A stretch of DNA of 63,469 bases, filler included, from Collodictyon triciliatum (taxonomy: Eukaryota), in NCBI GenBank assembly GCA_043381765.1. It is 33 parts of 33 records of this genome, joined end to end, with 100 filler letters (N's around TTAATTAATTAA, not from the genome) between each part and the next. Parts side by side here need not be neighbours in the genome. Positions count along the whole stretch, not along the records: positions 30,872 to 32,698 come from JBHJMP010010122.1; 32 more parts are not named here. One strand, 5' to 3'. The notes under the pieces were generated by a model. That model saw only the letters and a list, made by a program, of their open reading frames with translations. It had not been told where the DNA came from and ran no database searches. A program made the translations under genes and the position numbers. This document shows, one piece after another, positions 7,735 to 50,018 of this stretch; position 1 is the first letter of the stretch, and each line of letters opens with the position of its first letter.

Positions 7735-8001
7735 GATTACGTGTATTTAGTCAGCCCCAATGTTCAGTCGTCAAGTTTTGCTAGTGGTATCGGCGGCAAT
7801 GGCATCATCGCAAAAATACCGCTGAGTGTTGGTTCACGGTACTCTAGCTACTTTGAGGTGAATGACAATATCTTGGAGAATCTGATGGACTGCTCGTATA
7901 TTCCGTTCAGCTGGAATTTCAGATTGGTGGATAGGCTGGGCAATACAATTAACCAGCTTCAGGACTATTCTTTTACATTGCGGATAATTCCAGATTTTTA
8001 A
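7735..8001 (+). CDS. C-terminal part of a Polinton-like-virus minor capsid (penton) protein, 5' truncated
   Basis: DYVYLVSPN...GIIAKIPLSV...FRLVDRLGNTINQLQDYSFTLRI fits the AKIP...L.D..G..I....D.SFTL pattern of PLV/Polinton pentons; intron-less; 14 nt before the next gene. Confidence 0.65.
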   Translation, partial: DYVYLVSPNVQSSSFASGIGGNGIIAKIPLSVGSRYSSYFEVNDNILENLMDCSYIPFSWNFRLVDRLGNTINQLQDYSFTLRIIPDF

Positions 8002-8015
8002 TTCTTGGCTAATGT

Positions 8016-9566
8016 ATGGGTTTTTTCATAACAGAAGAAAAGGAACTACCGGAATTTTCCAATCAAGACGCAAACAAAGTATTAAAAGTCGATTCAAGTG
8101 GGCTTTATTTACAGTGGCTGCAGGAAACAGTAGCACCGGCTGAGCTTCCAAGTCAAACTGGGAACAGTGGCCGATTTCTAAGCACTGATGGCTCAGTACC
8201 TGCTTGGTCAACTATTTCACAAGTTCCCGGGCAAACCGCAGGAAATAATGGTCAATTTCTTACATCTAATGGCTCCAGTTCTTCGTGGGCGAGTGTTTCT
8301 CAGGTTCCAAGTCAATCATCACAAAGTGGGCGGTTTTTAACAACCAACGGTACCGCAGCAAGCTGGGCTGTTATTTCTCAAGTACCTTCAACAACAGGAA
8401 ACGATAATCGAGTGCTTGCTGTCGCTTCTGGAGGTAATGCTACTTGGACCAATAACTTAACGGTATCCAGTTCATTAGTCACAGTGCCTCATCTTCAAGT
8501 AAGTACAGGCACAGCAGCAAGCAATGGTATTTTTACATCAGGTGGAACAAATAGTGGAATCAGATGGCAGTCGGGATCAAATGTAAGAATACTTAGTAAT
8601 GGCACAACAGTGATTGATTTTTCGAATGCTAGTTCAGACCCACTTTGTTCAATAGAAGAAGCTATTGTTATGAAAAAATCTGTAAGACAACTTGTAAACA
8701 CCGTAGCTTCTTCTTTTAGTTTAGCAGTTGACAGCGCTAGTATACATCGAATAAATTTAACAGGAGCCGCAAATGATGTAACCATAACATTGACCGAGCG
8801 CGCAAATGGTACTAGATGTACATTTATTCCGTATAGAACAGCACCAACAACTCGTAAAACATTTTTAACAGTAGCCAGTTCTACTATTTTTATTCAGATA
8901 ATGCACAATCAAACCAACACACAGATTATATTTCCAAATACCTACGAAATGTTTGAAGGGGCGGTTTATCATTGTATTTATGTAGCTAGTGCTCTTACTT
9001 GGTATGTTTGGATATCCGGACTAGCAACAAATATTTCGGATCCGTTTGTAATTGGTACAACTATAGATTTTCAGGCAGCAAGTTCAGGCGCTAGAATACA
9101 AGGGTCAAATAATGGAGCAAACTCTAGTATAATTTTAATTTGTAATAACACAACAAGTTGTAATTTTACAGTTAATGATACCGAAGTTCAAAATTCGCTA
9201 CGACTATTCAAAGCGCCGCTTACCGATTTTATAATACACGACAGCGGAACGCACACTGTGAGTCGAAATTCACCAAATAAAATCGTATTGACAATACAGC
9301 AATCGGGAACTTCAAATGCAGTAATTGTATTTCCAGTAAGTACTGATGTCCCGAATGGACTAGAAATTCAAGTATTTGTCTGGAGGTTGTCAGGTAGAAC
9401 TGGAACAGGTGTTCAGCAAATCAGATTTGATTCAGCCAGTCCAACAAATAACGCCTTTGTCCTCGGGTCTAGCGGCACAGGTATCGCACTTGGAGGCACA
9501 ACGTACACTGTCACAGAAGGTACGATGTTTAAAGCTACTAATTTCCGTACAACGATAGGACGATGG
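8016..9566 (+). CDS. Viral fibre/spike-like protein, 3' truncated, intron-less
   Basis: More than 510 codons open; five ~26-aa tail-fibre-type repeats (e.g. LPSQTGNSGRFLSTDGSVPAW) then two related beta-rich S/T/N/G domains. Confidence 0.7.
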
Positions 9567-23173: not shown

Positions 23174-24718
23174 AGTTCACAGAGCATATTAGACTCAGCA
23201 GGTGGGGTATCGGCTCTGGCATCACAAAGTTCGAAGAGAATATAAACAAATTATCGGATTGCTTCGAAAATACACAATTCTTGGACATTGAGTTAGTTTC
23301 AAAGATTCCTGATTCCGCAAGATACCATCCCATCGTGGGTATTCCAGAAAGCAACGCTCTTTTTTCAAAATTTTACAAGGAGTTTCTGGAAAAAGTAATG
23401 AATGGTGACCAAATTACCTTTGACTCTATCCAAGGGTTTACAAAACGCCTCGATAAAAATTGGTTTGAGCCACTGGTGCCAGAGCTAAACACGTTCATGA
23501 CGCGTATTTCTGAATTGGATATTGACGTCATTCTATTTAATGAATGGAGCCAAGACAGTATTGACGTTATGGCAAATTTCAAGAGCATTCTGGACTCTTG
23601 CCGACATTGTCTGCCTGAAAGTATCGCTAATGTTCCTGTAAATCTTAGGGAACTCTACAGCAATTTCCATAATCTCTACGAGCGCTCACAGAAGATTATG
23701 GGGATTATAGACACAATCAAGACTCACAAGCTAATGCAGCTACCTGCAGAAGCTGAAGAGGCAAGTAGTATAATCAGAATGTGGATAGAACTTTACCAAA
23801 AAATACCTGAAGAATCAAAGTATGCTTTGTTTCCACCACGATGTTCTCTAACACTTCGTCAAGTAGGAAGAGAATGGAAGATATGGATGAAAGATGACTT
23901 GGCTATTGAAACACAAACCATAGAGACAGAAAAGTTTAACTCCATATCTGGGGTTGTAGAGTTTTTTGGAAGTTTGCACTCTGAGAGTAAAGATGGAGAT
24001 ATTTCAGATTTAATTAATTTTTGTCGCTCCAGATTGGATGATTCAGATAATGAAAAAAAGGATTTGATCGAAAAGGCCAGAGAAGTATGGCCTGAAGTTC
24101 GTTTGATAGCTGAATATAATGGGTCCCCGGATAAGACCCTTCCCCAAATGTTCCGAGCGTGGTCGTCCTTGACAAAAATGTCACAAAATCCTAAACTAAA
24201 CCTAAGTAGCGAGGAACTAAATGTTCTGGGTGAACTTTTGAGAGGGGTGTTTAATGCAGAAGCAAAGAAAGCCATGGATAGCATGAAACAAATAAAATCG
24301 GTGACAATTCTTGATTATCTCTACATAATCATCAGACTTCGTGCAACTCATTTTATTTAAATTTTCTTTAGCTTCAGTCGCTTTATTTGCTCTATTATTC
24401 ACCAAAGATAATTTAATAAATTAGACATGCAACTTTTGCATCGATATGCAATATGATGCCGAAAAGGGTGCACCTCTTCGAGTCAAACGCAAGGAAGAAT
24501 ACTCATCCGAAAAAGAGAGCCTGCCCATATCTGATATTCATCAACTTCGTCAGCTTTACGAAAAAGTGAACCTAATCATTAGCGCCGGAACAAAAGTTCA
24601 TAAGTCGGAGGATTCTGGAGACCAGGAAGCAGAGAACTTTATCAGAGTACTGGAACCACTTTTTGAATACACGATCATTCTGGTAGATTTGAAGAAAGAT
24701 GGCCATCCTCATTACCAG
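23174..24718 (+). CDS. Internal fragment of a large helical protein, possibly RNF213-like
   Basis: 359-aa open exon plus a second exon ending FIRVLEPLFEYTIILVDLKKDGHPHYQ|gt. The L..L...GHP.Y motif recalls the region before the AAA+ domain of RNF213-like proteins (inference). Confidence 0.4.
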
Positions 24719-24738
24719 GTTTCACTTTGCTTTATGAT

Positions 24739-24814
24739 TTTATTTTTTATTCTTCTTTTCAATTTTGTGCAGGATGGTGAAGATGTTGGCTTTGGTTCGC
24801 TAGCCATCGTTTGC
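24739..24814 (-). mobile_element. 76-bp 5'-truncated LINE copy with a perfect 16-bp target-site duplication, inside an intron
   Basis: Matches the 3' end of the LINE at ~47965-48040; CACTTTGCTTTATGAT flanks it at 24723-24738 and 24815-24830; A-rich tail. Confidence 0.9.
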
Positions 24815-25101
24815 CACTTTGCTTTATGATATTCTCAATAGATAGATAATACCCTTATATGCAAATTCAGTTTTATGTGTTTGATGTAGCAGATATTGGA
24901 TGAAATAAGTTCAAATATGGAGTGATTAAACTTCGCATGAATAGGCCCACAGCGAAGTGATGGAAGGGAATATGAACCCACACTATATCGAAAACAAGAT
25001 TNNNNNNNNNNNNNNNNNNNNNNNNNNNNNNNNNNNNNNNNNNNNTTAATTAATTAANNNNNNNNNNNNNNNNNNNNNNNNNNNNNNNNNNNNNNNNNNN
25101 N

Positions 25102-30871: not shown

Positions 30872-30965
30872 CAATTTTTTCTGTTGTAAATTTAATTCCT
30901 AGGTCACGATAATTAGTTATTGTAAAAACATAATCTCCAGTCTCGAATTCTTGAACACTTGTCAT
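30872..30965 (-). CDS. Start of an unidentified ORF on the viral contig (MTSVQEFETGDYVFTITNYRDLGIKFTTEKI...), running into the gap
   Basis: ATG at 30965, open to the contig end, same strand as the upstream capsid gene. Confidence 0.4.
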
Positions 30966-31037
30966 TTTGCAGGGGTTTTTAATATTATTATCTATACAAT
31001 TGTTTTTAAGTAGGTAATTACAAAAGTATTATTTAAA

Positions 31038-31242
31038 TTCACACCTTCACACAATCACACCATTGCAAAAGGTCCGTTGTAGGTTGGGCCTGAAATTTTA
31101 TTTTTATTTTTTTATTTTTTATATATTAACTTCAAAAAATGGTGTGAATGGTGTGAATGGTGTGAATGGTGTGATTTTAAAGTAAAAACCATAGCAAATA
31201 TTATAGTAACCGACAATAACAAACCACACCATTCACACCATT
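31038..31242. repeat. Iteron-like 9-bp repeat cluster in both orientations downstream of the capsid gene
   Basis: TGGTGTGAA x3 plus TGGTGTGA at 31140-31174; reverse-complement copies at 31038-31064 (three, imperfect) and 31225-31242 (two); AT-rich spacers. Confidence 0.8.
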
Positions 31243-31427
31243 TTTTTTTATAAAAAAATTAAACAGAATGAAGCAAATCCTTTTCACTTTTAAATTCGAC
31301 GGTACCCCCGCAACACGAACTCCGTTTCAAATGATCGACGGTATATTTCCACACACGCTCTATAACTAACACACAAGTCATAAGTAATGATATTATCGTA
31401 ATAGGTTCCATTACTTATATAAATATT

Positions 31428-32698
31428 TTATTCTACTCTGAAAGTCTGTTGGTTGGATTGAATTTCAAGGACGGCATCGTACAAACTTGCAATAATAACC
31501 TGGTAGTCCTTTCCAACAGCACCACTAAACTCTAGCCGCAAACTCATCAAGCCGCTGCCGGATGACTGGATGTCTGATCCGACGATCTCCCCCTCAACTG
31601 CATCGAGGACTTTGCGCAGATTGAAGCCAAGCATGAATTCAGAACATCCTTGTGCGGCTTCACGTAAACAACGAATTACATTCGTAGCGTCAGCATCAGC
31701 AAGAGCATTACCTGCTCCATCTTGATAGCTGTTGTAATTAGTATTTTCAAATCTAACAGCATCAGTTCCATATACTGCGCTAATAGGAACACCATTTTCA
31801 GTTCTAGCTGTTATTTCACAACTACTTGTTAAATTAAAAGTAGTTCCATATTTTGGTCCTCTGAATTCAGTTCCATCAAATCCAAACGGCCCAGTGTATT
31901 CCCCACGAACAAAAGTAAGACCTAGTGCCTTTTGTAATTCAATAAATACCTGACTTGCATCATTTTCACAATCCATAGGTTGAAGAGGGTAATAAAATGA
32001 GCCCAGTTGTAGCTGGGCAGTTTTGAGGTTTGTTGGAAAATGTTTTCTGTCACGGCCTGCTACTGTAAATTTATTTTGCTCGGCACTGTCGAAAAAAGCA
32101 ACATAAACAGCGTTTAATGACTTTACTGTATCATTAATATTATACACAATATTTGAAGTTGTTGTCGCTGGCAATGAGTAAAGTGAAGTCCTCCACGTCT
32201 TATAGGGAATTTGCAGGGGAATTCCTCTTTGAATACTTGACTGCAATTGTTGGTGATATTCAGGAGCCATTCTCACCAAATCATAAGACATATAACAATT
32301 AGATAAAACATATGAAGCTGTAGCGTCTGGAAGTCCAATAACAAGTCTTGAGTTAGTTGCTTCAACATCACTATGATAAGCTTGCATACACTGAGATGCT
32401 GGTGCGAGCTCTATTTCAATCTGAAAGGCAGTAACACTATCGATTAAACTTGTAGAAATCAAACCCGAATACTGACTTATACCAGATAATCGCAAAGGAA
32501 TACAATAATTTTTCTTTTTTAATGGTGAATTCAACGTTTGTTCTGATCTATGGTACCGAATTCTTTCATATGCAGAACCAATACCCATCGTAGCTTTGCC
32601 TACTGTATTATTAAAATCATCTGAAACATAATTCATAAACATAGAGTCCAAATAATTATATCTTTGTATATCTTCGAGTAAAAAGGACGTTCCCTTTC
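31428..32698 (-). CDS. Polinton-like-virus major capsid protein (double jelly-roll), paralogue A, 5' truncated
   Basis: Intron-less and open to the gap (LLEDIQRYNYLDSMF...); colinear motifs with 34746-36524 such as IPLRLSG...IEIELAPASQC, YVLSNC, LQIPYKTW, SLNAVY, QLQLGSFYYPLQPM, ELQKALG, FMLGFNL, YDAVLEI. Confidence 0.8.
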
Positions 32699-32929
32699 NN
32701 NNNNNNNNNNNNNNNNNNNNNNNNNNNNNNNNNNNNNNNNNNTTAATTAATTAANNNNNNNNNNNNNNNNNNNNNNNNNNNNNNNNNNNNNNNNNNNNAA
32801 ACAAACAAACAAACAAACAAACAAACAAACAAACAAACAAACAAACAAACAAACAAACAAACAAACAAACAAATAAATAAACAAACAAACAAACAAATAA
32901 ACAAGTAAATAAAAGCGATGGAAATCTAC

Positions 32930-34372: not shown

Positions 34373-34745
34373 TATTTGTCTCTTTTTCCCCTCGCTTCGT
34401 GATTAATGTGTAGACGCGTGCCCAAAATGATTGGATGTAAGTCCAACAAAATAGCTCATCACCAGAAAAAAAAGAACGGAAAAGTACATGAATTTGATTC
34501 AGTCATTTTTTTTTGTTTTTTGTTTTTTTGTTTTGTTTTTGTTTTGTTTTGTTTTGTTTTGTTTTGTTTTGTTTTGTTTTGTTTTGTTTTGTTTTGTTTT
34601 GTTTTGTTTTGTTTTGTTTTGTTTNNNNNNNNNNNNNNNNNNNNNNNNNNNNNNNNNNNNNNNNNNNNTTAATTAATTAANNNNNNNNNNNNNNNNNNNN
34701 NNNNNNNNNNNNNNNNNNNNNNNNTTTTGTTAATGAAAAAATAAT

Positions 34746-36524
34746 TTAGTAAAGTACCTGGGCATTGTCTTTGCCAATATCCAACACACGAGTGTGCTCG
34801 ATGATGACCCAGCAGGTATAGTTATCAACTGGTGCTACATTTGAAAGTGCTGCTGCAGCTGATTTTGCACTTGTATTTATTCCTCCTGCTGTAACACGAT
34901 GAGCTTCTGGGCAAGAATTTCCAAACTGAAGTCCGACCTGGACGATACCACTGTTGCTTGACGCATTATAACCACTGAGCTCAAACTCGTCACTATAATC
35001 TGATCGGGTCATACTCCAACCTAATGCGAAATATGTGGGAGTTTTCCAATAGATCTCTTCACATTCTAATGGTGAAGCTCCAAAATTGGCTGGCATTCTA
35101 TTGGAATCATTAGCGGCGGCAACCGCAGCAGTTTGAAACATGTTTGCCATTACTGCTTTATTCTGAGCATAATATATTCCAGCACCTGATACAGGGCAAA
35201 CTGTAGGTACATCAGCGCCAGTTACTATTACATTTCTTCCACAAAGTTGTCCAAAATTCACCTGACCAAGCATTTCAGCACTTGTGTTATATCCCAGCGC
35301 TTTCATTAAATAATTAAGTGCCTCAGGTTGTTGGCACCCTGCTTGTCCATGAAGTCCAGATGTTAAATATCCAGTTGCAGGAGCAGCAACACCTGATAAA
35401 CTTGCATTAGTATCTGGATAAGTTAAATAATTTGGACCATTTAACAAAATTGGGACACTTGGCAGTACTTTGCCATTTACTGTAAGTCTAGCTTGTGCAA
35501 GTCCCTCAATGGCGTGCATTCGGTCAGTACCAAGATAAGATAATGTGCCTTGCTCACAATTTCTAGTAAATATACAATATATAGCGTTAATGTTTGAGTA
35601 CTGAATTGATATATTTTGTGTAATCCACCCAGATGAATTTTTTGGAATAGGAAATTGCGTCATAAAATAAGTCTCAATTGGAATCTGCAAATTGTTGGAA
35701 ACCAAGTATTGGGAAAGAGCATTATTATAACTAGGTTCTGTTTGAATATAATTAATATTCATTCGTATATTTGAAAGTGTATAATTCAGAGTTGTTGCAG
35801 TAATACCAGTAAAAGCAAAATAGTTTCTTACAGTGTTTGCTGCAACGCTAACTGATCCATGTGTAAAACACTCACTAGCTGGTGCCAACCAAATACGAAT
35901 TTCAAGAGAATTGGGACCCAGTAAGTAAGCAGGAAGCAATGTTTTAATATTCATCAACCCCAAGTAACGAAGTGGAAATCCTATTTGAATAGTGTTTGAT
36001 TGAGTTGCATTATTAGCAAGTCCACTTAACAATAATTTGGATTTTTCTAAAATAGATTGACCCAACCCCATTCCTCCTGACATAAGATTGACCCAATTCT
36101 GATTATTACACCAGTTATGTTTAAAAGTCTCAAGGTAACTGTAATTATCTATACGCTCAAGCTCACTGCCATTGAGATAGACGGCAATACGATAAATAAA
36201 ACTTTCATAACTCTCACAGGGAGCAAGAATTGGAAGTTCAACACCCGCATCTATATCTATTTGTGTTCTTTTAAGATTATTATATGAGTCTTCATTAGAC
36301 AACCCCTTAACAGTCAAATCCGCTATGATATGGGCTGAGTCCATTTGAATAGACCACTCGTTGTCTATAGGCACACGAAACACGATCTGCGGCCCTGACG
36401 AAAAATTGGCAGTCTGCTCAGTTCCATTACTGGGTAAAACCTGTCTTTGTTGTTTTTCAAGGATAGTTTTTTTCTTGGATGAAATATTTCTGAATTGCAG
36501 TTCTTCGGGTAGTGAGTCCATCAT
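34746..36524 (-). CDS. Polinton-like-virus major capsid protein (double jelly-roll), paralogue B, complete 592 aa
   Basis: Intron-less ORF filling the contig; N-terminal SLPEELQF...VLPSNG...FSSGPQIVFRVP...MDSAHIIADL, FIYRIAVYLNGSELERIDNYSYL, LTVNGKVLPSVPI, C-terminal EHTRVLDI; typical PLV MCP layout. Confidence 0.85.
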   Translation of the reverse strand: MMDSLPEELQFRNISSKKKTILEKQQRQVLPSNGTEQTANFSSGPQIVFRVPIDNEWSIQMDSAHIIADLTVKGLSNEDSYNNLKRTQIDIDAGVELPILAPCESYESFIYRIAVYLNGSELERIDNYSYLETFKHNWCNNQNWVNLMSGGMGLGQSILEKSKLLLSGLANNATQSNTIQIGFPLRYLGLMNIKTLLPAYLLGPNSLEIRIWLAPASECFTHGSVSVAANTVRNYFAFTGITATTLNYTLSNIRMNINYIQTEPSYNNALSQYLVSNNLQIPIETYFMTQFPIPKNSSGWITQNISIQYSNINAIYCIFTRNCEQGTLSYLGTDRMHAIEGLAQARLTVNGKVLPSVPILLNGPNYLTYPDTNASLSGVAAPATGYLTSGLHGQAGCQQPEALNYLMKALGYNTSAEMLGQVNFGQLCGRNVIVTGADVPTVCPVSGAGIYYAQNKAVMANMFQTAAVAAANDSNRMPANFGASPLECEEIYWKTPTYFALGWSMTRSDYSDEFELSGYNASSNSGIVQVGLQFGNSCPEAHRVTAGGINTSAKSAAAALSNVAPVDNYTCWVIIEHTRVLDIGKDNAQVLY

Positions 36525-38296
36525 ATTTTTAAAAAGAAAATAATTTTCACNNNNNNNNNNNNNNNNNNNNNNNNNNNNNNNNNNNNNNNNNNNNTTAATT
36601 AATTAANNNNNNNNNNNNNNNNNNNNNNNNNNNNNNNNNNNNNNNNNNNNTATTTGTTTTTATTTGTTTTTATTTGTTTTTATTTGTTTTTATTTGTTTT
36701 TATTTGTTTTTATTTGTTTTTATTTGTTTTTATTTGTTTTTATTTGTTTATTTGTTTATTTGTTTATTTGTTTATTTATTCGCTCAGGATTTTTTTCCTA
36801 TTTTTTCGTTCAGGATATAAATGAACTCTCCAACGGAGCAGGATCGCGACAAGGATCGCGCCTCGAGTTCGGCACCCGTGAGAGAAATGCCGCTCTTTGG
36901 TGGCCTGCAAGAAAGCAGCGACGATCAGGACGAGGACCCTGGAAACATTGACGGAAATGAAAGCAGCAGCAACAGTGATAGCGGCAGCGAGGACGTAAAA
37001 GATTGCGATAATCCCAAGCCCCGCGATCACGCAACAGACTCGTCAACTGTTTTCAACCCAGACTGCGTCCCTCAAACACGCCCCCACAACACAGGTCTGC
37101 TTCGATGGTGTGGATTTAGCGGATGGAATGATATAACCACAGAAATCGACATTACAAGACAACATAAAAGTATCAGCACATGGCCACGTATTTTCTGTCT
37201 TGCTGAACAATCTAACCTCTGACTAACATACACCACAAAAACAAAACAAAAAAAAAAAGGTAACGACTCAGTATTCCAAGATGACACCCAGCAGTATAAA
37301 AGAGGGGAAACCCCACTCGCGGGCATCCAGTCGGCTGGTCACCCACAACCAGATGGTGTAATGGACGATTCACATGCTTTGGACGTTCAGCTACCAAGAG
37401 TGCTTTCTCCGCGCGACCAGATTAGCCTAGACTCAAGCCAAGGTTAAGGCTCTTCTGTATACATCCTCGTGTAACGAAATACGATTTAACATTAACACAT
37501 TGCAAAAAAAAAAAAAAGTTGATAGTTATTTGAAAAAATACTGGTTTAGTAGAAAGTGGATATCGTAATTTAGATATGTAGTCATTTATTTATTTCAATG
37601 AAAATGAACAGCAAGAAGACAGCCCATCCATCTTTTATCTTACACATAATGAATAGAATTGCTTTGTCGTTTTTAAAATAATTCCGTGCTGAAAATCTAC
37701 CCGCTCGCATATATACCAAACTTTGTTTATCTATCTATGAATATACATCGGCCGCATTAACTCCACATTGGTTTTTCACATGGATGTATTTCTTTTTAAT
37801 CATTCTCCAAAATTTATGGTAAGCTCTATTTTTTAAGTTTTTCTGTCATCAAATGCTCTCGAATGTAGGCATTTATAATGTACAAATGAATCATGTCAAA
37901 AAAAAAACTTAGGAACCTATCGAAAATGTTTTACAATTCTCGGGACGGATTTGTGTATAAATACAGGGTTCCTCAACCACCCTTTTGCGTGTGAATATCC
38001 CATCAGCGACCCAAAGTAATCATTCTCTGATATGTTCATTGTTTATCTATTATCTTGTTAAAAAAGTATTGTTTTGTCCTTTGCCCAAAATCGTTTGGGT
38101 GTATTTTATTCTGTCATTGTCATTATACGTAAAGGGTTATTCTCTTAAATTTAAAATATGGCGCAGGGAGAGCCTAGCAATCGCAAAGCGTTGTATGAAT
38201 CCGGTTCCGAAGAGTGATATAAGGTTTGTTGACATATTGATAATTAATTTCATCGAATATTTTGTTGTTTTATATTTTGTATTATGTTTTTCGTTT

Positions 38297-48047: not shown

Positions 48048-49011
48048 TGAACCCCGAATAAGTCATACGCCGCATCGCGCATATTACAAAGTCTCNNNNN
48101 NNNNNNNNNNNNNNNNNNNNNNNNNNNNNNNNNNNNNNNTTAATTAATTAANNNNNNNNNNNNNNNNNNNNNNNNNNNNNNNNNNNNNNNNNNNNGCTTG
48201 ACGCAGCAGCCAGCAACCAACCAAGCAAGCAGCAGTGTTTTTTGTCTCGACTGCCTTCCTCAAGTCGTCTTTCAAGCTTCACTCACACATGTGCGAGCAC
48301 ACACGAGACTCGAACAGCCTTCAACTTACTTTCGGCTGAATAATGCAGTGTTTTTACTATGACACGCACGAAGCCTCTCAAGTAAGTCTTTGCTTTGCTT
48401 TGCTTCTTCATTATGTTTTTTATTTTTCTGTCTTCAGAATTCTCCTTTTTATTTTGTTACAAAAACAGACACGCACGATGATTTCTCTCAATTCTTTTAT
48501 CTCACTTCGCCATTTTTCTTTAGAATTTTGGCAAAATTTCCGCTTCTTTCTGCTGCCCACACGCGAAGCTTCTTGTAATTTTTATTGTTATCGAATCATA
48601 ATTTGTCTTATGTTTTTTTTTGATTTCGTCGAACTTTGCTAAACTTTTTTATTTTCCAGTTATTGTGTTTTTCATGTTATTTTCAATAGAAGTCTTCCAA
48701 ATCAACCTTTTTTTCTTGCCAGCCGTCTAGTTTTTGCCGCTATCTCCGCTAACCTTACTATCGACGCTAAAAAACCCCGATTGCACCTCCGAATCTCTGC
48801 TATTTATTTCGCAGCTGATTCGTCCCTCTTCACTTTCCTGCTTTTCTTTCAGCCGCAGCCAGTTATCTGCAACCCGTCACCTTCACCCATTCCCAAGCAA
48901 TACGACACCAAACAAATAATCACTGCGCAACCTGCCCACACAAAACTCGACTCATTCGTCTCCGGTTTCCTCAGACAGCGTCACAACCACCTTCCGTCCC
49001 CCTCCGCCGCC

Positions 49012-50018
49012 ATGGCTGATCGCGCCGCCCGTCTCGAAGAGCTGCGAAAAATCGTCGGTTACGGCAGCATCGCGGAGCTCGAAAAACGCACAGAGCTGAA
49101 ACTCAATAACAAAAAACTGACTTCTTTGCCGCCCGGTGTCTGGGATCTGCCAGGCTTGGTGAAGTTGTCGCTCTGGGAAAATCAGCTTTCGTCGCTGCCG
49201 CCGGAAATATCGAAGTTGACGGGACTCGCGGAGCTTCGTGTTAGTGTAAACCAGCTTTCGTCGCTGCCGCCGGAAATATCGCAGTTGACGGGACTCGAAG
49301 TGCTTTATGTTGGTAACAACCGGCTTTCGTCGCTGCCGCCGGAAATATCGCGGTTGACGGGACTCGCGTTGCTTAGTGTTGGTGTCAACCAGCTTTCGTC
49401 GCTGCCACCGGAAATATCGCAGTTGACAGGCTTGGTGAAGCTTAGTGTTAGTAGAAATCTGCTTTCGTCGCTGCCTCCGAAAATATCGCAGTTGACGGGA
49501 CTCGAGGAGCTTAATGTTCATGGCAATCAGCTTTCGTCGCTGCCGCCGGAAATATCGCACTTGACGGGACTCACGGAGCTTTGGGTTTACAGCAACCCTG
49601 TAAGTGTTTTGTTGTTTTTGTTTTATTAAAGAAAAGTGACTAACGATGTGTGCAGATCAAGGAGCTTCCACCGCAAATCACGGCACTCACGAATCTGAAG
49701 TATCTCAACATCGAGTATGATGGGAATATAAGCATCAAGCGCGCACCGCGCGGAATCACGAACCTGCCGTGCTGGAAAGAAAAAGGAAGAGAAAGAGAAC
49801 ACATCCAAAAGCTGCAGTTATACGAAGTACCAGTAAGTCATATTAATACAATAATAAAATAAAAATAATTTTTTTTTAAAAAAACGAAGAATACTAAAAA
49901 TAACAAATAGGAAGCAGAAATGCTGAAGCCAGGCTGGACACCGAACGCAACCCAAATCCACTTTGAATCGCTGAATTTTTACGGAATGAACATCTCTGCG
50001 CTTCCACCCAACATCACG
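49012..50018 (+). CDS. Leucine-rich-repeat protein with near-identical 23-aa (69-bp) tandem LRRs; exons 49012-49599, 49656-49832, 49911-gap
   Basis: Seven units of the type LSSLPPEISQLTGLxxLxVxxNQ; GTAAGT donors and a GACTAAC branch site; 3' end missing. Confidence 0.9.

Follow-up and report, generated by a model that had tools for sequence, protein, structure and literature searches.

Two divergent double-jelly-roll capsid protein genes on short contigs of a Collodictyon triciliatum draft assembly, probably from two separate polinton-like viruses

The window, a 63,469-nt stretch of the draft assembly of Collodictyon triciliatum (GCA_043381765.1), consists of 33 contigs, each of ∼1.82 kb, ordered by length and separated by spacers of the form N44 + TTAATTAATTAA + N44; an internal run of 195 Ns in one of them brings the number of contig pieces to 34. 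Because these spacers are artificial, adjacency of contigs in the window carries no meaning and is uninformative on their linkage. The virus-like contigs carry two genes for major capsid proteins (MCPs), one penton-like fragment, one fibre-like gene, and the small open reading frames (ORFs) that follow the first MCP gene (Table 1). The product of the first MCP gene (P0001, family F1), on the contig at 30872-32698, comprises 422 codons and a TAA stop and is 5'-truncated by the contig end, so that about 93 N-terminal residues are missing; most of its full-length relatives are 507 to 530 aa long. The second MCP ORF (P0002, family F2) occupies nearly all of its own contig, 34725-36550, and both reading frames are intact. 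Scoring of the 815 ORFs from the 34 contig pieces with MCP profiles matched these two ORFs only, with no third MCP among them. The sequence-only reading had stated that the two genes lie on separate contigs and that the window is unable to decide their linkage, and this was the case.

Table 1. Virus-like features in the window (positions along the whole stretch)
Feature	Position	Strand	Remarks
MCP gene, family F1 (P0001)	31428-32698	-	open from contig end 32698 to TAA at 31428-31430
MCP gene, family F2 (P0002)	34746-36524	-	complete ORF, 592 aa
Conserved 50-aa protein directly downstream of F1 MCP	31259-31411	-	N-terminal hydrophobic helix, SSCCGG-VEF motif
Intergenic repeat	31138-31242		AATGGTGTG, 4 tandem 9-nt units at 31138-31173
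Start of next viral gene (MTSVQEFETGDY...)	30872-30965	-	31-residue fragment, truncated by contig end
Penton-like (minor capsid) protein, C-terminal end	7735-8001	+	on third virus-like contig, 7735-9566
Fibre- or spike-like protein	8016-9566	+	Ser/Gly/Thr-rich repeats, 3'-truncated by contig end

Ten related loci extend beyond the stop codon of the F1 MCP, and 8 of these (L001, L003, L004, L005, L007, L009, L010, and L011) encode the 50-aa protein 3' of it; locus L002 extends just 60 bases past that stop, and L006 and L008 stop within the MCP. The window copy is 96% identical to the one in L003, though the respective MCPs are just 56% identical, and the DNA differences in this gene fall mostly at synonymous sites. 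The 50-aa product is a putative small virion membrane protein. In the adjacent AT-rich spacer, inverted copies of the AATGGTGTG unit at 31221-31242 oppose the tandem array; the repeat search over this region returned the repeat families D1 and D2 and the inverted pairs I2 and I3, and the repeat is a putative promoter or terminator element. By eye, the N terminus of the MTSVQEFETGDY... fragment resembles those of a 129-aa ORF of L001 (1724-2110) and a 142-aa ORF of L003 (2034-2459), which take the same place after the MCP.

The penton-like fragment on the third virus-like contig is 32 to 36% identical to the products of two tandem genes of L004 that adjoin its F1 MCP region (E values of 6e-10 and 1e-7). 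It is a putative penton protein, judging from its position, size, and atlas look-alikes, which belong to viral clusters (DUF5901 is found on 13% of the members of one of them). The product of the downstream gene is weakly similar (25% over 370 aa, E = 4e-9) to a 359-aa ORF located after the two penton-like genes of L004, and it matches a PHROG of unknown function, phrog_26190 (E = 1e-7); it is a putative fibre- or spike-like protein.

Double-jelly-roll MCPs (Bamfordvirae) consist of two consecutive eight-stranded jelly rolls in a single chain. The F1 fold was modelled with AF2 on P0030, the closest full-length relative, which is 93% identical to the truncated P0001 (pLDDT 78.7, pTM 0.82), and the F2 fold was modelled on P0002 (pLDDT 76.8, pTM 0.82). 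Foldseek searches matched the F1 model to the MCPs of SGIV, PBCV-1, mavirus, and Sputnik with E values of 1e-16 to 1e-11, as well as to MCPs in BFVD, and the F2 model to those of SGIV, Sputnik, PBCV-1, and mavirus with E values of 1e-14 to 1e-11. The top match was in both cases the MCP of an iridovirus (SGIV, 8hif; 1e-16 for F1 and 1e-14 for F2). Structural matches at E ≤ 0.001 included more than 240 PDB chains; among the matches listed are the double-jelly-roll MCPs of SGIV, PBCV-1, EhV-201, mavirus, Sputnik, faustovirus, and ASFV. In these models, both families have the double-jelly-roll MCP fold of the Bamfordvirae, which agrees with the earlier assignment of both ORFs as capsid proteins. 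The best structural matches are to MCPs of nucleocytoplasmic large DNA viruses (NCLDVs), namely SGIV (8hif), PBCV-1 (Vp54, 5tip/6ncl), and faustovirus (5j7o), with TM scores of 0.45 to 0.59, but the sequence identity to them is only 7 to 10%, there is no match to the Pfam Capsid_NCLDV family, and the contigs of the new families are small (up to 25 kb).

Sequence searches did not connect either protein to a named family. The Pfam capsid families considered (Capsid_NCLDV [PF04451], Capsid_N [PF16903], Sputnik_MCP, and DJR-like_dom) did not match P0001 or P0002 at E ≤ 1 and occur only on 10 to 29% of the members of look-alike atlas clusters. Nothing was found in PHROGs with either MCP, the PDB sequence search with profile A5 returned chance matches only (E > 0.1), and the copy of IMG/VR searched with profiles A1, A2, and A6 and two back-translated motifs contained no relative. 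Cluster look-ups of the MCP relatives gave "hypothetical protein" as the sole name.

The sequence-only reading had described P0001 and P0002 as aligning along their length with low identity and had quoted six pairs of matching motifs, and both observations hold up. BLASTP aligned the two proteins with 65 identities in 240 positions (27%, E = 6e-20); profile A2, which represents the P0001 family and contains no P0002-type row, scored P0002 at E = 6.7e-32; and the MAFFT alignment A1 gave 24.6% identity over 398 aligned columns. Five of the six motif pairs share columns in A1, and the sixth (LLEDIQRYNYL/ELERIDNYSYL) is offset there, yet it is matched up by BLASTP; all six are homologous positions. 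Given the BLASTP result, the profile score, the shared motif columns, and the 398-column alignment, full-length homology is far beyond chance, and P0001 and P0002 are true but distant homologues.

Each protein belongs to its own family of metagenomic sequences. Family F1 includes 43 relatives (clusters) that are 39 to 93% identical to P0001, mostly of the above length, and family F2 includes 27 relatives (clusters), 29 to 94% identical to P0002; beside them there is a third sister family, F3. The representative clusters retrieved by an exhaustive profile search (28 at E ≤ 1e-30) fall into three clades with a between-clade identity of 21 to 31%. In a 60-row tree from a quick IQ-TREE run, each of the three clades has an SH-aLRT value of 99, with P0001 placed in F1 and P0002 in F2. 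Neither F1 nor F2 has a name. The three clades together make up a superfamily of double-jelly-roll capsid proteins that is represented neither in Pfam nor in the searched IMG/VR copy.

The genomic context of these MCPs was assessed in 16 related loci, comprising about 60 kb, whose six-frame ORFs were scored with profiles A1, A2, A5, and A6 (E ≤ 10). Exactly one MCP was found in each of the 14 loci that contain an MCP (read as two pieces in L016), and no locus has a second one; L011, which contains only the last 37 MCP residues, L028, and L029 gave no matches to the MCP profiles. The F1 loci from the metagenome scan (at least 11, each of up to 6.3 kb) share a conserved cassette, made up of a 114- to 124-aa protein, the MCP, the 50-aa protein, and one more small ORF (∼100 to 140 aa). 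There is no second MCP beside the F1 MCP up to 4 kb upstream (in L004) or 1.9 kb downstream (in L010). The partial penton-like gene at the start of L004 is followed in turn by another penton-like gene, a fibre-like gene, the gene of a small protein, and the F1 MCP gene. Within the 6.3 kb or less that was read for the F1 relatives, MCP and penton-like genes were seen but no ATPase.

The F2-type locus L027 (12,945 nt, from genome G001) encodes an MCP that is 31% identical to P0002, an ATPase of the A32 type, which passes the Pfam cut-off for Pox_A32 (2.2e-13), and a D5-like helicase (DUF5906, 2.2e-13). The genes are arranged in the order ATPase, small protein, MCP, and a presumed penton-like gene inside which the contig ends; no second MCP was found in its 12.9 kb. 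All three F2-type MCP loci of G001 (C579, C550, and C473) have one common gene order, in which the A32 ATPase gene adjoins the MCP gene in C579 and C550, while C473 ends before that position; they are read here as orthologous loci of co-binned strains. Genome G001 contains no F1- or F3-type MCP, only F2-type ones. Comparisons of the flanking genes were negative: homology between the small proteins that precede the MCP in F1 and in F2 loci was unsupported (hhalign probability of 6%, E = 0.006), the 634-aa protein of L027 showed no significant similarity to the 467-aa protein of L004 or the 1015-aa protein of L005, and neither the L004 penton-like protein nor the fibre-like protein from the window gave usable matches in G001.

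Polinton-like viruses are recognized by the combination of an MCP, a minor capsid (penton) protein, and an A32-like ATPase on a genome of ∼15 to 40 kb. In the 12.9 kb of L027, the MCP and the Pox_A32 ATPase are accompanied by a putative penton gene. The gene set of this locus, in which a D5-like SF3 helicase joins the double-jelly-roll MCP, the A32-like packaging ATPase, and the penton-like gene, resembles that of the single-MCP polinton-like viruses. A further likeness is that the genes occur in freshwater samples, and no protease or integrase was detected in the L027 proteins scanned. Single-MCP polinton-like viruses from aquatic protists include Aquintoviricetes-type groups, among them TsV/TVS and PgVV/Gezel (PMC7805220; 10.64898/2026.06.19.733378). 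The likeness to such named groups is one of gene content; Pfam capsid families, PDB sequences, and the searched IMG/VR copy provided no sequence match.

Co-occurrence of the three families on one contig was evaluated indirectly from the "longest contig" values recorded for 90% clusters (43 in F1, 31 [27 + 4] in F2, and 39 [35 + 4] in F3, 113 in all), a comparison that uses one contig per cluster and only those proteins retrieved by word-limited searches. The only exact coincidence across families (2780/2780) was discounted because 2780 nt is too short for two MCP genes. Pairs of values within 1 nt of each other across families numbered 3, compared with 1.15 expected by chance, and one such pair, 6735 (P0069, F1) and 6734 (P0091, F2), was considered as a possible common contig and put down to chance. 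Of the contigs of at least 8 kb, 0 of 33 (12 F1, 11 F2, and 10 F3) are common to two families; neither the longest contig overall (24,938 nt; P0010, F2) nor the ∼17.2-kb F1 contigs (P0044, P0047, and P0049) have counterparts in the other two families. Among the contigs that were actually read, those of F1 were 6.3 kb long at most, and F2a was not represented.

Freshwater, sediment, subsurface, and wastewater metagenome runs from 9 studies contained parts of the F1 contig, with the best run containing 0.54 of its sampled words; there were no RNA runs among those listed. Four runs (X1 to X4) picked for containing the F1 contig were also searched for the F2 contig, pieces of which were present at ≥99% identity in two of them (X3 and X4). 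Run X1 gave two short pieces of <95% identity, covering 4 of 30 bins, and X2 gave no cover; missing cover does not count as evidence here. The reads of X1 to X4 revealed no joint or loose end linking the F1 and F2 contigs.

P0001 and P0002 are probably the MCPs of two separate single-MCP polinton-like viruses. Two ordinary viruses are the most likely source because the two genes occupy separate contigs and the genomes that carry F1 relatives differ from those that carry F2 relatives; the F1 and F2 contigs of the window itself are probably not linked to each other. Since the sister lineages F1, F2, and F3 are old and carried by different genomes, the relationship is best viewed as orthology between virus lineages rather than paralogy within a capsid, and "orthologous MCPs of separate virus lineages" suits the pair better than "paralogue." The sequence-only reading had offered paralogues of one heteromeric capsid as one of two options, to be given up if each MCP sat in a single-MCP element. 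This option found no support: the 113 clusters have no common contig long enough for two MCPs, and the related loci that were read have one MCP each, at least as far as the relatives are concerned.

The base composition of the two window genes speaks against the two-virus assignment. They are nearly equal in GC content (38.2% and 38.5%) and GC3 (27.0% and 27.4%), with a codon usage (RSCU) correlation of r = 0.82; in F1 MCP genes from other sources, GC3 lies between 9.5% and 34.7%. Such matching composition fits one genome, or two viruses with a common host.

A single genome carrying both MCP genes, and perhaps a third, with heteromeric capsomers, broken by the assembler into ∼1.8-kb pieces, is an unlikely source. 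Viruses of this kind do exist, as the sequence-only reading had correctly stated: all 39 Trimcap members are described as encoding three MCP genes (PMC7805220), and multi-MCP polinton-like viruses are also treated in a preprint (10.64898/2026.06.19.733378) and in PMC11502894. That preprint attributes the three-MCP observation to Yutin 2015 (PMC4642659), in which a term search found no such passage. F1, F2, and F3 are deeply diverged sister MCP lineages of small aquatic double-stranded DNA (dsDNA) viruses, and their pattern of three roughly equidistant clades is also the one described for Trimcap/group X (10.64898/2026.05.28.728513). Two tandem penton-like genes, as in the F1 locus L004, are a feature that 10.64898/2026.06.19.733378 reports for "several Trimcap B members" sampled in Austrian lakes. 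The near-identical GC, GC3, and correlated codon use of the window genes and the near-identical pieces of both contigs in runs X3 and X4 also favor a common genome, and the L027 and L004 fragments could, speculatively, be joined into one consistent map.

However, three MCP genes on one genome, the hallmark of Trimcap/group X, were not found when the relatives were tested. No contig is common to F1, F2, and F3 among the 113 clusters and 33 contigs of at least 8 kb, including several of 15 to 25 kb that should be near-complete genomes; one MCP per locus was seen across about 60 kb of related DNA, 12.9 kb of it in L027; and G001 has F2-type MCPs only, each within the same cassette. In addition, the similarity between F1 and F2 is visible by plain BLASTP, whereas the three MCPs of Trimcap genomes are described as highly divergent and far apart in trees (10.64898/2026.06.19.733378). 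The more specific proposal that a freshwater group akin to Trimcap B has F1, F2, and F3 as its three capsid lineages, with the window contigs coming from one such genome with heterotrimeric capsomers, is quite improbable. Were it true, the tandem penton-like genes of L004 and the matching codon usage would be signs of that architecture, the missing common contigs would result from assembly fragmentation and from the longest-contig-only view, and these viruses would represent a new freshwater lineage among the multi-capsid (Trimcap) viruses, an architecture already described in the literature.

It is similarly improbable that the contigs are endogenous viral elements derived from polinton-like viruses that had inserted into the genome of the assembled eukaryote. 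Many protist genomes do contain integrated polinton-like viruses, which are widespread (PMC10120064), and the remaining contigs of the window have a eukaryotic appearance, with microsatellites, low coding density, and an ORF with LRR repeats. But the three virus-like contigs lack host-like flanks, the one at 34725-36550 being nearly all ORF and the one at 30872-32698 running on into conserved viral genes, all their reading frames are intact, and parts of the F1 contig occur in metagenome runs of 9 studies. The intact frames, absent host flanks, and metagenome occurrence are also compatible with integration in a common freshwater protist.

Virophages are marked by a virophage-type MCP, a cysteine protease, and an FtsK-HerA ATPase. 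It is very improbable that the two genes encode virophage (Maveriviricetes) MCPs: although the fold and similar length are shared with the MCPs of mavirus (6g43-6g45) and Sputnik (3j26), which Foldseek matches at E values of 1e-11 to 1e-13, and virophage MCP clusters are among the atlas look-alikes, sequence identity is about 10%, the NCLDV MCPs score equally well or better (SGIV 8hif), the Pfam virophage MCP domain is not matched, and the 9 scanned proteins of L027, a genome read in part (12.9 kb), include no Pfam cysteine protease or integrase (E ≤ 0.01), with a Pox_A32-type ATPase and a D5-like helicase instead.

If the assignment to two single-MCP viruses is correct, two small dsDNA viruses of the polinton-like kind (Preplasmiviricota) would be present in the material behind the draft assembly, likely free-living and not integrated. 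By analogy with solved double-jelly-roll MCPs, each MCP can be expected to assemble into pseudo-hexameric trimers, and these would tile an icosahedral shell closed at the vertices by the penton protein and filled by the A32-type packaging ATPase. The window, and probably the whole assembly, includes environmental polinton-like-virus contigs amid eukaryote-like ones.

The two capsid ORFs of the window are homologous, as the sequence-only reading had proposed from six pairs of motifs. BLASTP aligns their products, P0001 (family F1) and P0002 (family F2), at E=6e-20 with 27% identity across 240 residues, and profile A2, built from the P0001 family and free of P0002-type rows, scores P0002 at 6.7e-32. 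The MAFFT alignment shows 24.6% identity over 398 aligned columns and places five of the six motif pairs in the same columns; the sixth pair is aligned by BLASTP. The F1 gene is cut at the 5' end; most full-length relatives of P0001 consist of 507-530 aa, so with its 422 codons it lacks ~93 residues.

Coordinates of the capsid ORFs and of associated genes
Feature	Position	Strand	Description
F1 MCP ORF (P0001)	31428-32698	-	Open from contig end 32698 to TAA 31428-31430; 422 codons
F2 MCP ORF (P0002)	34746-36524	-	Complete, 592 aa
50-aa protein gene, 3' of F1 MCP	31259-31411 (window)	-	Also in related loci: L003 1649-1804, L005 5395-5547, L001 1525-1668
Tandem penton-like genes of L004	1-1081 (L004)		Two, diverged, adjoining the fibre-like gene; F1-type virus fragment

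Searches of Pfam and PHROGs gave nothing meaningful for P0001 or P0002, and searching PDB sequences with a profile returned chance matches only. Structural models were made with AlphaFold2 from family alignments, using P0030, a full-length relative 93% identical to P0001, for F1 (pLDDT 78.7, pTM 0.82) and P0002 itself for F2 (pLDDT 76.8, pTM 0.82). In Foldseek, Singapore grouper iridovirus 8hif was matched at 1e-16 by the F1 model and at 1e-14 by the F2 model. Both models also match the solved double-jelly-roll major capsid proteins (MCPs) of PBCV-1, EhV-201, mavirus (6g43-6g45), Sputnik (3j26), and faustovirus, and the F2 model matches the ASFV MCP as well. Matches in a viral-model library are MCPs of NCLDVs, virophages, adomaviruses, and adintoviruses; the look-alikes in the atlas are viral clusters, the commonest phylum of several of them being Preplasmiviricota. 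On the strength of these fold matches and viral look-alikes, both proteins are identified as double-jelly-roll MCPs, which bears out the capsid assignment made from the sequence.

The window comprises 33 contigs of 1,815-1,834 nt, arranged in descending order of length (determined by a script over the N runs), one of which is interrupted by 195 internal Ns. The spacers between contigs (e.g., 32699-32798) are artificial and consist of N44, 12 A/T bases (TTAATTAATTAA), and another N44. Given these spacers and the sorting by length, adjacent contigs are unrelated pieces of a draft assembly, and any findings that rest on linkage of adjoining contigs are unfounded. Most contigs are low in coding density, rich in microsatellite-like repeats, and eukaryotic in appearance; long ORFs of the viral type fill only three of them (7735-9566, 30872-32698, and 34725-36550). 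The only two other long ORFs, one of 394 aa without obvious repeats in 23174-25001(+) and one of 328 aa with leucine-rich repeats in 48196-50018(+), look like eukaryotic host genes.

Word-limited searches found 43 relatives of P0001 (39-93% identity, contigs up to 17.2 kb) and 27 relatives of P0002 (29-94% identity, contigs up to 24.9 kb); every named one is annotated "hypothetical protein." A joint F1+F2 profile, run against 1.84 billion representative proteins, matched 2,255, 584, and 28 of them at cut-offs of E≤1e-3, E≤1e-10, and E≤1e-30, respectively. The core set splits into three clades, F1, F2 (P0002 together with a deeper F2b branch), and a new third clade, F3, with 21-31% identity between clades and SH-aLRT values of 99 for each in a quick IQ-TREE analysis with 60 rows.

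At least 11 F1 loci, the longest of 6.3 kb, are present among the metagenome matches listed. They share a cassette of a 114-124-aa protein, the MCP, a 50-aa protein, and an ORF of ~100-140 aa that is of two kinds, differing by locus. Window contig 30872-32698 keeps this order, and the gene following the 50-aa gene starts at 30965. The 50-aa protein has an N-terminal hydrophobic helix and an invariant SSCCG..EF motif, and its copies in different viruses are 85-96% identical, as against only 54-73% for the MCPs, the DNA changes being mostly synonymous; it may be a small virion membrane protein, possibly acylated. Four tandem copies of AATGGTGTG, with inverted copies ~60 nt away, lie in AT-rich DNA separating the 50-aa gene from the gene that follows (31138-31242) and are a possible promoter or terminator element or protein-binding site. 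In locus L004, the tandem pair of penton-like genes lies upstream of the cassette, along with a fibre-like gene and an opposite-strand gene of 467 aa. Homologues of the L004 penton-like C-terminus and, more weakly, of its fibre-like gene are found on window contig 7735-9566. The fibre-like ORF there, 8016-9566(+), contains about five N-terminal repeats of a ~30-aa unit (..G.FLT.NG....W..ISQVP..) and matches phrog_26190 (unknown function) at 1e-7.

On the F2 side, a scan of genome contigs yielded MCPs of the F2 type, sharing 31-37% identity with P0002, in one genome from a pond, G001, where they lie on contigs C579, C473, and C550; G001 has no F1-type or F3-type MCP beyond these loci. Because G001 is labelled a Bacteroidetes MAG, its viral contigs are presumed to be mis-binned. 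In all three, a small protein of 134-143 aa is followed by the MCP; past the MCP, C579 and C473 have an opposite-strand ORF of ~135 aa and then a penton-like N-terminus, and C579 and C550 carry an A32 ATPase gene on the far side of the small protein. We interpret the three loci as orthologues from co-binned strains rather than paralogues within one genome. At least five contigs of G001 are of the polinton-like-virus type and represent about three related strains (C579, C473, and C550, read as L027, L014, and L016, plus C425 [L028] and C354 [L029]). Beyond the MCP module, L027 (12,945 nt, with a single MCP) encodes ORFs of 634, 470, 465, and 313 aa and a 732-aa D5-like helicase; its Pfam matches are Pox_A32 and DUF5906, each at 2.2e-13. 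With an MCP, a penton-like protein, an A32 ATPase, and a helicase, and with neither a protease nor an integrase detected, L027 has the gene set of a polinton-like virus. At 12.9 kb, L027 constitutes a near-complete replication and morphogenesis module, and its 465-aa ORF, which has an "HTDC" motif, may be a small polymerase.

Three divergent MCP genes per genome are well documented for Trimcap/group X polinton-like viruses (PMC7805220, 10.64898/2026.06.19.733378, 10.64898/2026.05.28.728513, and PMC11502894). The preprint 10.64898/2026.06.19.733378 also describes "Trimcap B," a group from freshwater, and reports a pair of penton genes in certain members; the duplicated penton-like gene of L004 resembles these. 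The multi-MCP idea therefore deserved a serious test. Searching all six-frame ORFs of 16 related loci (~60 kb) with profiles A1, A2, A5, and A6 at E≤10 gave exactly one MCP in each MCP-bearing locus and a second in none. In the window, only the two known ORFs, among 815, match MCP profiles. An indirect comparison used the longest contig per 90% cluster (43 F1, 31 F2, and 39 F3 values), as families residing in one genome should give the same values across lists; it sees only that contig, and the underlying searches were word-limited. The sole exact cross-family match, 2,780 nt, could not accommodate two MCP genes of ~1.7 kb each, and matches within 1 nt numbered 3, versus 1.15 expected by chance. 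Among the 33 contigs of at least 8 kb, not one recurs across the lists; the longest overall (24.9 kb, F2) is unmatched in the F1 and F3 lists, and for several F1 contigs of ~17.2 kb the only possible F2 partner is one single-sequence cluster. Because family members as distant as 29-40% identity were picked up, a partner residing in the same genome should have shown up many times.

The likely source of the two genes is thus a pair of separate polinton-like viruses, each carrying a double-jelly-roll MCP of its own, from sister lineages F1 and F2, and assembled beside eukaryote DNA; of the two options raised from the sequence, separate viruses are favored over one heteromeric capsid. A single Trimcap-like genome carrying both genes is improbable, although their composition is nearly equal (GC, 38.2% vs 38.5%; GC3, 27.0% vs 27.4%; codon use, r=0.82), whereas other F1 genes range in GC3 from 9.5% to 34.7%. 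Stretches of the F1 contig turn up in metagenome runs from 9 studies, covering freshwater, sediment, subsurface, and wastewater (best word share, 0.54), pieces of the F2 contig are present at ≥99% identity in two of the four F1-contig-bearing runs examined (X3 and X4), and the L027 and L004 fragments can be chained via their penton-like genes without contradiction. Composition, co-occurrence, and chainability suit one genome, but they suit equally well two related viruses that share a habitat, and perhaps a host, and the contig evidence was weighed above all three. Integration of the viral contigs in the host genome, a question separate from that of one genome or two, seems doubtful.

The F1 and F2 families have no match in Pfam or in the copy of IMG/VR searched; they are unnamed and new to both, and their viral type is already known. 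Judging from the fold and the neighbouring genes of relatives, each MCP of the two separate viruses would form trimeric pseudo-hexamers, with pentons at the vertices and packaging by the A32 ATPase.
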